Source: Escherichia coli
Lineage (GTDB): Bacteria; Pseudomonadota; Gammaproteobacteria; Enterobacterales; Enterobacteriaceae
DNA length: 64,000 nucleotides
NCBI RefSeq assembly: GCF_003334765.1
Contig: NZ_QOWT01000003.1
Direction: 5' to 3' (one strand)
This document shows, piece by piece, positions 47,256-64,000 of the stretch. Each line of letters begins with the position of its first letter. Positions within the stretch are counted from its first letter, which is position 1. A program made the translations under genes and the position numbers. The notes under the pieces are model-generated. The model worked only from the letters and a program-made list of their open reading frames with translations. It searched no databases and was not told the origin of the DNA.

Positions 47256-48704
47256 TTATTCTCCATGCTCATTTTTCTTCAGCTTGCGCATCAGAAGCCA
47301 CATACGTACTGTCCTGACTTTTAAATCTTTATCAGAGACGGATTCCTTCACCAGGTCAGCATGATGCTGATAGCCATTAAAGAAGACGTTCAGCACAACG
47401 GCGCTAAGGGTTGCGAGCATAATGCCGCTATGTAGCAGCGGTTGCAGTACGGCCGGTAACTTAGAAAAGAAATCGTGAGAGAGCGTCGGAGTCATGCCAA
47501 CGCCGAGACTGATCGCCACAATATAGAGGTTGTAACGGTTGGTGGTGTAGTTACAGCGCGACAGAATTCGAATCCCTGTCGCCAGTACCATGCCGAACAT
47601 CACTAGACCAGCGCCGCCCAGCACAAATTGCGGAATGGAGGCTACCAGCACCGCCATTTTTGGCACCATGCCAAACAGGATTAATATAATTCCCGAAGAA
47701 ATACACACCCAGCGGCTATGAACGCGCGTCACGCTAACCAGGCCAACGTTTTGAGAAAATGACGTGTGGGGGAAGCTGTTAAACGTGCCGCCTATCATTG
47801 TCCCTACGCCATCGACACGCAGCCCGCGAATAATATCGTGCGAAGAGAGTTTACGACCGACTATTTCACCCAGTGCCAGGAACATCCCCATCGACTCGAT
47901 AAACACGATGATTAACACGGCAGTCATGGTCAGAATGGAAACGGGATCGAAAATCGGCATACCAAACGACATCGGCGTAACAATCGCAAACCATGAAGCA
48001 TCATGTAGCCCGGATAAATTGACTTCATTCATCATCCACGAAAGTAAAAAGCCAAATACAATCCCCAGTAATACGGCGACGTTGGACATAAATCCTTTCG
48101 CATAGCGAGTAATGAGCAAGATAAAAATTAAGACGGCAAAGGAGATACCTAAATAAACGGGATTACCATATTGCGGATTCCCTTTACCTCCGGCGGCCCA
48201 GTCAATACCCACCTGAATGATGCTAAGCCCGATAGAAGTAATAACCACACCGGTAACCAGTGGCGGGAATAAAGGCATCAAGCGACCGATAAGTGGCGCT
48301 AATAATGTGGTGATAAAACCCGCGGCGATAGTGGCACCAAATATCCCCAGCAGGCCGATATCCGGGTTCATCCCAATGGCTATCATTGGTGTTACAGCAG
48401 CAAAGGTCACCGACATAATCACCGGCAGGCGGATCCCCATAAAGCGGCCGATACCGATACATTGCAATAATGTGACGATCCCGCAGCAAAAGAGATCCGA
48501 GCTAATGAGCATCGCAATAGCTTCTTTTGAGAGGCCCAGTCGGTCACCAATCATAAGAGGAACAGCGACTGCACCTGCGTACATGACAAGGACGTGTTGC
48601 AGACCGAGTATGATCAGCTTTCCTGGTGATAATATGCGGTCAACCTCATCAGTTGGGCGGTCTTGCCCAGAAGATGAGGGAAGTTGGGAATCTATGGCGC
48701 TCAT
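47256..48704 (-). CDS. uacT: NCS2-family nucleobase (uric acid/xanthine-type) permease
   Basis: 482 aa starting MSAIDSQLPSSSGQDRP...; NAT/NCS2 transporter. The track ORF has a 43-codon upstream extension. Confidence 0.85.
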   Translation of the reverse strand: MSAIDSQLPSSSGQDRPTDEVDRILSPGKLIILGLQHVLVMYAGAVAVPLMIGDRLGLSKEAIAMLISSDLFCCGIVTLLQCIGIGRFMGIRLPVIMSVTFAAVTPMIAIGMNPDIGLLGIFGATIAAGFITTLLAPLIGRLMPLFPPLVTGVVITSIGLSIIQVGIDWAAGGKGNPQYGNPVYLGISFAVLIFILLITRYAKGFMSNVAVLLGIVFGFLLSWMMNEVNLSGLHDASWFAIVTPMSFGMPIFDPVSILTMTAVLIIVFIESMGMFLALGEIVGRKLSSHDIIRGLRVDGVGTMIGGTFNSFPHTSFSQNVGLVSVTRVHSRWVCISSGIILILFGMVPKMAVLVASIPQFVLGGAGLVMFGMVLATGIRILSRCNYTTNRYNLYIVAISLGVGMTPTLSHDFFSKLPAVLQPLLHSGIMLATLSAVVLNVFFNGYQHHADLVKESVSDKDLKVRTVRMWLLMRKLKKNEHGE

Positions 48705-49139
48705 CAGTGTTTCTCCTTTCGCCCGCCAGAGTAAAAAGCAACCGTTTACGTTAATGAAACTGTCTAAACACATGCTCGTGGAGTGCCAGTTTTTGCGAGG
48801 AAGGGGAGTTAGAGACAGGAATTGCGGAGGCAATCACATAATCGTGGTTAAACCACGAAAATGAGAAGAGAACCTGACAATGGAATTATCTGTAATTTTC
48901 TCATATTGATATTTCATTAATCATTCTGGCATGTCGCACTCTCGCATTTAATCGTTTTTATCTGGATAGCGCTCTTTTGATCGGCAATGTTGAAATAATG
49001 AAAGCGGCATAGATTGAGGGGCAATAATTTGAACTCAGTCGCAAAATTATAATTAAAACGGTCATGCTACCTAATATATGCCCGTTTATTGCATCGCGAA
49101 ATTTGAGAAGACATAACTCATTAAATGAAAGGGATGCAA

Positions 49140-63900: not shown

Positions 63901-64000
63901 TGAGTAAAACTGTTGCTCGGGAATACCAAAGATTGAGCGTTGTTGTTGGTATTCATCAAATATGCGCGTCAAAAGTTCCTCAAACGGAATGGGACGCATA
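60913..64000 (-). CDS. ygfK: Large Fe-S / FAD-NAD(P)-binding oxidoreductase (GltD and dihydropyrimidine dehydrogenase-like); 5' end runs off the right window edge
   Basis: Open minus-strand frame to the window edge; C-terminal ferredoxin-like Cys clusters and internal [14 protein letters not shown] dinucleotide-binding motif. Confidence 0.85.
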   Translation of the reverse strand, partial: MRPIPFEELLTRIFDEYQQQRSIFGIPEQQFYSPVKGKTVSVFGETCATPVGPAAGPHTQLAQNIVTSWLTGGRFIELKTVQILDRLELEKPCIDAEDECFNTEWSTEFTLLKAWDEYLKAWFALHLLEAMFQPSDSGKSFIFNMSVGYNLEGIKQPPMQQFIDNMMDASDHPKFAQYRDTLNKLLQDDAFLARHGLQEKRESLQALPARIPTSMVHGVTLSTMHGCPPHEIEAICRYMLEEKGLNTFVKLNPTLLGYARVREILDVCGFGYIGLKEESFDHDLKLTQALEMLERLMALAKEKSLGFGVKLTNTLGTINNKGALPGEEMYMSGRALFPLSINVAAVLSRAFDGKLPISYSGGASQLTIRDIFDTGIRPITMATDLLKPGGYLRLSACMRELEGSDAWGLDHVDVERLNRLAADALTMEYTQKHWKPEERIEVAEDLPLTDCYVAPCVTACAIKQDIPEYIRLLGEHRYADALELIYQRNALPAITGHICDHQCQYNCTRLDYDSALNIRELKKVALEKGWDEYKQRWHKPAGSGSRHPVAVIGAGPAGLAAGYFLARAGHPVTLFEREANAGGVVKNIIPQFRIPAELIQHDIDFVAAHGVKFEYGCSPDLTIEQLKNQGFHYVLIATGTDKNSGVKLAGDNQNVWKSLPFLREYNKGTALKLGKHVVVVGAGNTAMDCARAALRVPGVEKATIVYRRSLQEMPAWREEYEEALHDGVEFRFLNNPERFDADGTLTLRVMSLGEPDEKGRRRPVETNETVTLLVDSLITAIGEQQDTEALNAMGVPLDKNGWPDVDHNGETRLTDVFMIGDVQRGPSSIVAAVGTARRATDAILSRENIRSHQNDKYWNNVNPAEIYQRKGDISITLVNSDDRDAFVAQEAARCLECNYVCSKCVDVCPNRANVSIAVPGFQNRFQTLHLDAYCNECGNCAQFCPWNGKPYKDKITVFSLAQDFDNSSNPGFLVEDCRVRVRLNNQSWVLNIDSKGQFNNVPPELNDMCRIISHVHQHHHYLLGRVEV

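Follow-up and report, generated by a model that had tools for sequence, protein, structure and literature searches.

The last 16.7 kb (positions 47256-64000) of a 64,000-nucleotide (nt) stretch of Escherichia coli DNA (contig NZ_QOWT01000003.1), hereafter called the window, hold the ten genes uacT, ygfT, ygfS, ghxQ, guaD, xanQ, xdhD, ygfM, ssnA and ygfK. We are highly confident that this region is the left half of the anaerobic purine-degradation island of E. coli, in which four cooperating transcription units would bring about reductive uricolysis via 2,8-dioxopurine. The cluster as such is already known and ordinary for the species, and its chemistry was published in 2025; it is medically relevant, as gut bacteria that carry it have been reported to remove urate. 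What is new here concerns the first enzyme, namely a cysteine-free iron-sulfur (Fe-S) type domain in its molybdenum (Mo) subunit XdhD and the split of the first step between two Mo-enzyme subfamilies; the remainder of the pathway is published.

The cluster of reductive uricolysis described for E. coli K-12 (Li et al. 2025; Liu et al. 2025) is the same locus with the same proteins: over all ten genes the window is 100% identical to many E. coli genomes and the gene content is equal, with the difference that the window holds only the left half and cuts ygfK. Li et al. (2025, Life Metab, PMC12507026) found that, given NADH, the purified XdhD of E. coli turns urate into 2,8-dioxopurine (isoxanthine, “yanthine”); a band of about 30 kDa, taken as YgfM, co-purifies with it; YgfK and SsnA with NAD(P)H convert 2,8-dioxopurine to ureidomethylhydantoin, which HyuA, YgeW (or UacY)/YqeA, YgeY and YgeX take on to pyruvate. 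In the same work, a ΔxdhD strain accumulated urate and made no yanthine, a ΔygfK strain made no ureidomethylhydantoin, and a ΔxdhA strain did not consume xanthine although xdhD was intact; further, engineered E. coli overexpressing the cluster lowered serum urate in mice. The same pathway was reached in Clostridium sporogenes by Liu et al. (2025, bioRxiv 10.1101/2025.04.24.650524), who also reconstituted it in full; there, E. coli YgfK is described as an NADPH:2,8-dioxopurine oxidoreductase active without XdhD, for which selenate is neither needed nor stimulatory. Before that, two groups had been the first to connect the cluster with the anaerobic use of urate. Mutants of E. coli in ygfK or ssnA fail to convert urate to acetate, and urate strongly induces ygfK and ygfT (Liu et al. 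2022 preprint); the cluster is required for anaerobic growth on urate, for which Proteobacteria need added Mo and selenium (Kasahara et al., preprint 10.1101/2022.12.12.520169).

The window provides the Mo enzyme for the step from urate to 2,8-dioxopurine as an intact xdhD-ygfM pair, equal in sequence to the characterized E. coli proteins, whose activity is taken from the literature; next to it lie the genes of the reductase YgfK, in whose place UacX would count as well, and of the amidohydrolase SsnA, the ssnA start being 2 nt past the ygfK stop. The genes for the subsequent steps (hyuA, ygeW/yqeA, ygeY, ygeX) are found outside the window, directly past its edge. In the scheme that combines the published steps with the gene content, GhxQ would bring in guanine and hypoxanthine, XanQ xanthine, and UacT urate; GuaD would convert guanine to xanthine, and XdhABC, encoded outside the window, would oxidize hypoxanthine and xanthine to urate. 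From there on, as published work has shown, XdhD-YgfM strips the C6 oxygen from urate to give 2,8-dioxopurine, YgfK reduces and dearomatizes the latter, SsnA hydrolyzes the product to ureidomethylhydantoin, and the products of hyuA, ygeW/yqeA, ygeY and ygeX complete the route to pyruvate, NH3, CO2 and ATP.

Since XdhD turns urate into 2,8-dioxopurine, the Mo enzyme runs as a reductive dehydroxylase, not as a hydroxylase, and the in vitro chemistry of each step makes xdhD-ygfM, ygfK and ssnA the genes of three consecutive pathway enzymes, not of subunits of one hydroxylase. The latter arrangement, in the style of Haft and Self, sees in XdhD, YgfM, SsnA and YgfK a single selenium-dependent molybdenum hydroxylase oxidizing purine, with YgfK as electron-transfer flavoprotein. 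It survives in the NCBIfam names Se_sel_red_Mo, Se_sel_red_FAD, Se_ssnA and Se_ygfK and is in keeping with the adjacent yqeB/yqeC/mocA genes, which are linked in 9/9 proteobacterial XdhD-type loci; also, as XdhD has no Fe-S clusters and YgfK is rich in them, YgfK as the wire is imaginable. Nevertheless, it has been largely refuted by the in vitro reconstitution and is very unlikely: YgfK has a substrate of its own, reducing 2,8-dioxopurine with NADPH in the absence of XdhD (Liu et al. 2025), its N-terminal domain is predicted to be a substrate/flavin mononucleotide (FMN) barrel of the type found in dihydropyrimidine dehydrogenase (DPD), XdhD acts reductively on urate, and SsnA takes the product of YgfK.

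An earlier note on this DNA had proposed a selenium-linked molybdenum hydroxylase system of purine catabolism with poorly defined substrates and electron path. Its purine-catabolic part is borne out by the 2025 biochemistry of the E. coli proteins, and its link to selenium is right in that the cluster adjoins the selenium-cofactor markers yqeB/yqeC. What it said of the substrates was true until about 2023 and is now outdated, the urate and 2,8-dioxopurine steps having been shown (Li et al. 2025; Liu et al. 2025), and “hydroxylase” has to be given up, as the Mo enzyme works reductively and the genes encode successive enzymes. On the electron path, the note holds good for XdhD, whose [2Fe-2S] ligands are all absent.

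A molybdenum subunit without iron-sulfur ligands

XdhD reaches 2122.8 bits with TIGR03313 (cut-off 1101.9) and contains the Pfam domains Ald_Xan_dh_C, MoCoBD_1 and MoCoBD_2, as expected of a Mo-cofactor subunit of the xanthine oxidase family. It retains the catalytic glutamate (E917) and the GGGFG motif and is 30% identical to XdhA over the Mo domain; E606, the residue stressed by Li et al. 2025, sits in an 11-amino-acid insertion relative to XdhA. Database names such as “putative hypoxanthine oxidase” (in older UniProt/GenBank entries “probable hypoxanthine oxidase”) make XdhD a hypoxanthine/xanthine oxidase redundant with XdhABC, for which the identity to XdhA and the retained glutamate speak; such a role is extremely unlikely, as the ΔxdhA strain with intact xdhD does not consume xanthine and the ΔxdhD strain accumulates urate and makes no 2,8-dioxopurine (Li et al. 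2025).

Like the canonical holoenzymes of the family (xanthine dehydrogenase (XDH) of Rhodobacter capsulatus, XdhABC and PaoABC of E. coli, nicotinate dehydrogenase of Eubacterium barkeri, 3HRD), the urate 6-dehydroxylase XdhD-YgfM combines Mo domains bearing GGGFG and the catalytic glutamate with a separate CoxM-like subunit for flavin adenine dinucleotide (FAD) and an N-terminal domain homologous to the small FeS subunit; unlike them, it has both [2Fe-2S] sites abolished, works in the reductive direction, and its FAD subunit YgfM is short (259 amino acids). The eight-cysteine [2Fe-2S] domain of the canonical enzymes is thus lacking, whereas the CoxM/XdhB-type FAD subunit is present. Residues 1-160 of XdhD contain no cysteine; Pfam Fer2_2 still matches residues 73-145, and the best homologue of the domain is the small FeS subunit of nicotinate dehydrogenase (3hrd_D, E 1e-17). 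In the residue alignment of the two, all ligands are swapped: GC-x-EGECGAC is replaced by NSDDGFGFAGSD, QCGYC by QSGYN, and LCRC by FSRD.

This is a property of the subfamily. The 120 closest homologues of XdhD (at least 75% identity) have between zero and four cysteines in the N-domain stretch and never eight. For a wider comparison, 80 loci were fetched with an alignment of the YgfK N-domain from contigs representing one genome per species, and every Fe-S-type domain encoded in them was aligned. The eight ligand columns read D-(A/T/C)-D-(S/N/G)-S-N-x-D in 16/16 XdhD-type sequences, which stem from Enterobacterales, Aeromonas, Photobacterium, a metagenome-assembled genome (MAG) of the Rhodocyclaceae, six Spirochaete loci and one MAG labelled “uncultured”; the remaining Fe-S subunits or domains served as controls: the 42 complete ones all read CCCCCCCC, and a further one breaks off at a contig end after its sixth cysteine. 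The pseudo-domains of E. coli and Spirochaetes share 43-46% identity, which is only slightly below the rest of the protein and argues for a conserved rather than a decaying domain.

YgfM (489.7 bits with TIGR03312, cut-off 241.5; Pfam FAD_binding_5, PF00941, and CO_deh_flav_C, PF03450) has near-invariant FAD motifs, G30-G31 and T102/G104-G105, among 18 orthologues. For its complex with XdhD, an AlphaFold3 ipTM of 0.94 has been reported. In the set of YgfM orthologues no conserved cysteine motif that could serve as a compensating Fe-S site was found, and the only widely conserved cysteines of XdhD itself (238, 398, 536 and 619) are scattered in the sequence. In the xanthine oxidase family, as the bovine and R. 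capsulatus structures illustrate, two clusters bridge FAD and Mo-pterin, which are too distant from each other for direct tunnelling. With all eight cysteines absent, the canonical wire from FAD via Fe/S II and Fe/S I to Mo is therefore impossible in XdhD-YgfM.

We put forward, tentatively and with somewhat more doubt than conviction, that the XdhD-type enzymes (TIGR03313 with YgfM) may be the first known xanthine oxidase family members that keep the FAD subunit yet dispense with both [2Fe-2S] clusters, with an Asp/Ser/Asn pseudo-domain conserved from Enterobacterales to Spirochaetes. Mention of the cysteine-free domain was not found in the accessible parts of Li et al. 2025, Liu et al. 2025, a commentary and the molybdoenzyme papers covered; subscription reviews lay outside the search, so that an earlier mention is possible, and the domain is apparently an overlooked oddity. 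If the proposal is true, the activity measured in vitro with NADH would not reflect the path used in the cell, and the donor would still have to be discovered; it could be the formate-linked YgfT/YgfS in Enterobacterales, some other partner, or the geometry of FAD and Mo might be rearranged. Also, the selenium dependence of the XdhD subfamily would still need direct proof. The missing Fe-S wire turns the question of what reduces XdhD into a concrete and testable one, with relevance for engineering flux through the pathway. A “ping-pong” at the Mo site of XdhD, that is, hydroxylation of xanthine at C8 coupled to dehydroxylation of urate at C6 (a net isomerization for which Fe-S clusters would be unnecessary), was considered as well and is disfavoured, because ΔxdhA leaves xanthine unconsumed.

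Two subfamilies at the first step and the selenium link

The Spirochaete proteins fall into TIGR03313 together with E. coli XdhD (1284 and 1262 bits, cut-off 1101.9). In Bacillota, Atopobium, Lucifera and the C. botulinum group, the fused Mo enzymes whose genes lie beside ygfK/ssnA fall, in six loci according to NCBIfam, into TIGR03311, “selenium-dependent xanthine dehydrogenase”; two further loci, one of them from Spirochaeta, were grouped with this type by similarity and the presence of eight cysteines only. TIGR03311-type proteins share only 25-32% identity with XdhD or XdhA of E. coli, XdhA giving the better score for four of the six; they keep all eight cysteines, and a YgfM partner is absent from their loci. 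Judged from these family matches, two Mo-enzyme subfamilies appear to fill the first slot of the pathway, the cysteine-free TIGR03313 type with YgfM in Proteobacteria and most Spirochaetes and the TIGR03311 type in Bacillota, Atopobium, Lucifera and C. botulinum.

The enzyme of C. sporogenes, 2,8-dioxopurine dehydrogenase (DOPDH, XdhAC), is probably of the TIGR03311 type, to go by the close relative C. botulinum ATCC 25763. It catalyzes the same reaction as XdhD (urate <-> 2,8-dioxopurine), is encoded in the same position beside ygfK/ssnA and has an Fe-S-like domain fused ahead of the Mo domain; unlike E. coli XdhD, it would, as a TIGR03311-type enzyme, keep the eight cysteines, and it has no FAD subunit and makes no use of NAD(P)H. 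In Liu et al. (2025, 10.1101/2025.04.24.650524), DOPDH is reported to be inactive when purified from a selD mutant and not to use NAD(P)H. As two subfamilies serve the first step, the Clostridium results on selenium and on the electron donor are not simply transferable to E. coli.

For E. coli, the markers of the selenium cofactor, yqeB, yqeC and mocA, adjoin the cluster; yqeB/yqeC lie within 10 kb in 9/9 proteobacterial XdhD-type loci and in 0/5 spirochaete XdhD-type loci. Co-occurrence at the level of whole genomes, selD included, has been reported (Liu et al. 2025, 10.1101/2025.04.24.650524); selenium is not addressed by Li et al. 2025 (PMC12507026). A selenium dependence of E. coli XdhD is thus suggested by the adjacent yqeB/yqeC/mocA genes, by their proteobacterial linkage and by the requirement of Mo and selenium for growth, and MocA, YqeB and YqeC would supply the Mo cofactor in its cytidylylated and probably selenium-modified form.

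Between ssnA and ygfM-xdhD, many loci of Photobacterium and Spirochaetes (e.g., L015, 14466-18024) additionally encode an XDH-like enzyme of canonical make-up with three subunits: a Mo subunit sharing about 25% identity with XdhA, an FeS subunit bearing eight cysteines, and a FAD subunit.

YgfK, SsnA and the supply of electrons

YgfK and SsnA score 1772.8 bits with TIGR03315 (cut-off 835) and 737.9 bits with TIGR03314 (cut-off 455.5), respectively, and ssnA adjoins ygfK in 64 of 79 related loci from at least eight phyla. In Pfam, YgfK matches Fer4_20 and Pyr_redox_2 at residues 453-839, a GltD/DPD-like module also recognized by PDB sequence matches, and, weakly, a C-terminal 4Fe-4S dicluster; its cysteine motifs include one of the 2x[4Fe-4S] type at the C-terminus. 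Nothing in Pfam matches residues 1-450. Their AlphaFold2 model (pLDDT 88.9, pTM 0.90) finds as top Foldseek matches the FMN domain of pig DPD and class-2 dihydroorotate dehydrogenase (DHODH), with probability 1.0 and E about 1e-9; since the N-domain folds on the DPD/DHODH barrel, YgfK is predicted to be a domain-permuted DPD-like enzyme, with which a modelling remark in Li et al. 2025 (PMC12507026) agrees. With DPD (mammalian DPD or bacterial PydA-PreTA), YgfK shares the GltD-like FAD/NADPH module with its Fer4_20 clusters, the 2x[4Fe-4S] motif at the C-terminus and the TIM barrel of the FMN type; both reduce a C=C bond of a nucleobase ring before an amidohydrolase opens it. Unlike in DPD, where the order of domains is Fe-S, FAD, NADPH, FMN barrel, Fe-S, the barrel of YgfK is N-terminal, before the module at 453-839, instead of following the NADPH domain; moreover, the substrate is a purine (2,8-dioxopurine) and the barrel lies outside any Pfam model. 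If FMN is bound as the fold predicts, electrons would pass from NAD(P)H via FAD and [4Fe-4S] clusters to FMN and the substrate.

For conservation, YgfK homologues were gathered by exhaustive HMMER search and 24 diverse N-domains were aligned. Within the motif STMHGCP, S226-T227 and C231-P232 are invariant, and H229-G230 occur in at least 90% of these sequences. Cys231, in the predicted FMN barrel, might match Cys671, the catalytic acid of DPD, which is a guess from the motif.

Historically, YgfK, SsnA, YgfM and XdhD were annotated as a selenate reductase, and RefSeq and JGI product names such as “putative selenate reductase subunit YgfK” still say so. The assignment reportedly goes back to an original genetic report (YgfKLMN), which Liu et al. 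2025 cite in turn. It has next to no chance of being right, as the activity of YgfK neither requires selenate nor rises with it (Liu et al. 2025), each of the enzymes has a defined purine-derived substrate, and the cluster accompanies purine transporters and purine enzymes across phyla. Two product names in RefSeq mislead in the case of E. coli, namely “putative selenate reductase subunit” and, for XdhD, “Mo/Fe-S-binding subunit”.

YgfT (1502.7 bits with NF009451, cut-off 1154) is the named E. coli member of the AegA/YgfT family of “formate-dependent uric acid utilization”. It is built from an N-terminal HydN/HycB-like poly-[4Fe-4S] domain, with CxxCxxCxxxC motifs at 12 and 87, and a following GltD-like FAD/NAD(P)H module; its PDB relatives are the small chain of GltD for residues 176-631 and, for residues 1-104, HycB (subunit 2 of formate hydrogenlyase) and HycB3/4 of the hydrogen-dependent CO2 reductase. 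YgfS is HydN-like, with 16 cysteines arranged as four groups of four, and has partial matches to the NCBIfam models of the AegA/YgfT N-terminus and of HydN, all below cut-off. AegA/YgfT have been proposed to take electrons from formate dehydrogenase H, formate dependence having been reported (Iwadate and Kato 2019, cited in the Liu et al. 2022 preprint), and the predicted domain features of YgfT and YgfS fit both. YgfT-YgfS could thus link formate oxidation by FdhF to the pathway, where they would most likely make NAD(P)H or pass electrons on directly. Among the related loci, YgfT/YgfS are found only in some of the Enterobacterales (4/79) and in none of the loci from Aeromonas, Photobacterium, Spirochaetes or Bacillota.

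Some points weigh against reductive uricolysis as drawn above. The simple picture of NADH reducing the FAD of YgfM and this in turn the Mo of XdhD is mechanistically incomplete. The assay of XdhD employed 10 μM enzyme and 1 mM NADH with a readout by liquid chromatography-mass spectrometry, and rate constants for XdhD were not found in the accessible parts of Li et al. 2025 (PMC12507026); with so much enzyme and such a readout, a physiologically competent route from NADH to XdhD is not established. Enzymatic selenium dependence is known only for the C. sporogenes enzyme, which would stand outside the XdhD family. The part assigned to YgfT/YgfS derives from a genetic report known at second hand and from domain similarity, and the boundaries of the transcription units (see below) from pattern matches.

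Gene map, regulation and variants

Gene coordinates (Table 1) are those of the RefSeq annotation of E. coli strain ML35, transferred to the window (window position = position in the ML35 locus, L001, plus 31255). Gene identities, order and orientation had been called in the earlier note as they stand on the RefSeq map, which gives the same ten genes. All ten reading frames are intact, each beginning with ATG and none interrupted by a stop; ygfK is truncated by the window edge, its first 11 nt (four codons) lying beyond base 64000. YgfT, GuaD, XdhD, YgfM, SsnA and YgfK exceed the curated cut-offs of specific NCBIfam models (GuaD: TIGR02967, 632.6 bits, cut-off 375), and the agreement of NCBIfam, Pfam and PDB sequence matches supports the previous description of YgfT and YgfK as GltD/DPD-like Fe-S flavoproteins. 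Among the transporters, UacT passes the xanthine-permease subfamily model TIGR03173 (509.8 bits, cut-off 414) as well as the NCS2 superfamily model; XanQ passes the NCS2 model TIGR00801 (455 bits, cut-off 292) and narrowly misses the xanthine-permease subfamily (413.7 vs 414.15); GhxQ, matched by none of the NCBIfam models at E<=1e-10, is identified by its RefSeq name.

Table 1 Features of the region (window positions)
Feature	Position	Strand	Assignment and basis
uacT (ygfU)	47256-48704	-	Urate/proton symporter, NCS2 family; intact 482-aa reading frame; RefSeq annotation of identical sequence
Sigma-54 site for ygfT	49077-49093	+	Exact match to ChIP-seq site TATGCCCGTTTATTGCA (Bonocora et al. 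2015)
ygfT	49140-51059	+	Formate-dependent uric acid utilization protein; NF009451
ygfS	51059-51547	+	HydN-like ferredoxin; name from RefSeq
Terminator-like hairpin	51554-51577	-	After ghxQ, between convergent ygfS/ghxQ; consensus scan: 9-bp stem, 7 GC pairs, T-rich tail; pattern match
ghxQ	51583-52950	-	Guanine/hypoxanthine transporter; RefSeq annotation of identical protein WP_000012163.1; intact 455-aa reading frame
guaD	52986-54302	-	Guanine deaminase (guanine to xanthine); RefSeq annotation and TIGR02967
xanQ	54320-55720	-	Xanthine/proton symporter; RefSeq annotation and TIGR00801
Terminator-like GC hairpin	55860-55875	-	10 nt past xdhD stop; consensus scan: GGCCGCTTCGGCGGCC then TGTTTCTCTG; pattern match
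xdhD	55885-58755	-	Mo-cofactor subunit of urate 6-dehydroxylase (urate to 2,8-dioxopurine); TIGR03313
XdhD residues 1-160	58276-58755	-	Vestigial [2Fe-2S] domain; none of eight Cys ligands
ygfM	58752-59531	-	FAD-binding subunit, XdhD partner; TIGR03312
ssnA	59582-60910	-	Amidohydrolase, ring opening of reduced 2,8-dioxopurine; TIGR03314
ygfK	60913-64011 (window stops at 64000)	-	NAD(P)H:2,8-dioxopurine oxidoreductase, 1032 aa; TIGR03315
YgfK residues 1-450	62662-64000	-	Predicted FMN/substrate TIM barrel; AlphaFold2 and Foldseek

Two overlaps of 4 bp had been described before. The one between ygfM and xdhD (ATGA) is as stated; that between ygfT and ygfS exists only if ygfS starts with GTG at 51056, while with the RefSeq start, ATG at 51059, the two genes share 1 nt (TGATG). 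Whichever start is used, translation of ygfS is coupled to that of ygfT. The markers yqeB, yqeC and ygfJ, for which the earlier note suggested a check, are in place: past the right edge, the identical genome stretch continues directly with the three genes mocA (ygfJ), yqeC and yqeB, after which come arcC(yqeA)-hyuA-ygeY-dpaL(ygeX)-ygeW, then ygeV, encoding a sigma-54 activator, and xdhABC.

The sigma-54 site of ygfT lies 47 nt upstream of the ATG, inside the 435-nt intergenic region between the divergent uacT and ygfT, and has a weak motif score in the list obtained by chromatin immunoprecipitation sequencing (ChIP-seq; Bonocora et al. 2015). The published sites for ygfK and ygeW map just outside the window (L001, 32829-32844 and 42645-42660). 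As pattern counts for sigma-54 are overall not above chance (39 vs 33.9), sites were retained only where they coincide with published ChIP-seq peaks. The sequence TGGCACTCCACGAGCA at 48773-48788 on the minus strand, about 70 nt upstream of the uacT start, is sigma-54-like with two mismatches; the ChIP-seq list does not contain it, and it probably arose by chance. A sigma-70 promoter scan was uninformative, with 15 matches against a shuffled expectation of 18.8. Together, the sigma-54 sites and hairpins suggest four transcription units, uacT, ygfT-ygfS, xanQ-guaD-ghxQ and ygfK-ssnA-ygfM-xdhD, the last of which is probably ended by the hairpin past xdhD. Control, which is shown in part, would involve sigma-54, bound upstream of ygfT, ygfK, ygeW and xdhA, with the island-encoded activator YgeV, and the pathway would be repressed by glucose. 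An Rfam scan of the whole window returned no RNA family within 47256-64000; elsewhere it matched, all on the minus strand, 6S RNA (ssrS, 23905-24088), a Sib antitoxin RNA (23106-23256), naRNA4 (37599-37676) and the small RNA ES036 (9992-10034).

The region belongs to the core chromosome of E. coli and equals its counterpart in many complete genomes at 100% identity; by megablast it is found in 5375 of 5426 complete E. coli genomes, 5161 of which cover at least 80% of it. Beyond the species, the order ygfK-ssnA-ygfM-xdhD-xanQ-guaD is kept in Edwardsiella and Aeromonas, and the loci of Serratia oryzae and Hafnia hold the genes of the same set.

Some variants may be added. In one E. coli genome, NZ_CM176582.1, the region comes in two pieces spread over 19.7 kb rather than 16.7 kb, which implies that some 3 kb have been inserted within the cluster, possibly an insertion sequence element. 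In strain ML35, which is identical to the window over 47256-64000, the annotation gives xdhC (L001, 44848-45327, outside the window), the gene for the FeS subunit of XdhABC, as a pseudogene interrupted by a stop. An open reading frame of 1215 amino acids fusing YgfM and XdhD (PF00941 and Mo domains) is on record with 43 member sequences, which come from read-archive assemblies; rather than a genuine fusion, it is probably the result of a frameshift or of faulty assembly where the two genes overlap (ATGA). Finally, in four loci from Serratia silvae, Pluralibacter and Enterobacter spp., ygfK-ssnA adjoin hyuA/ygeY/dpaL, uacT and ygfT, and in three of the four also ygfS; an XdhD-type gene is absent within 10 kb, and the island is rearranged compared to that of E. 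coli.

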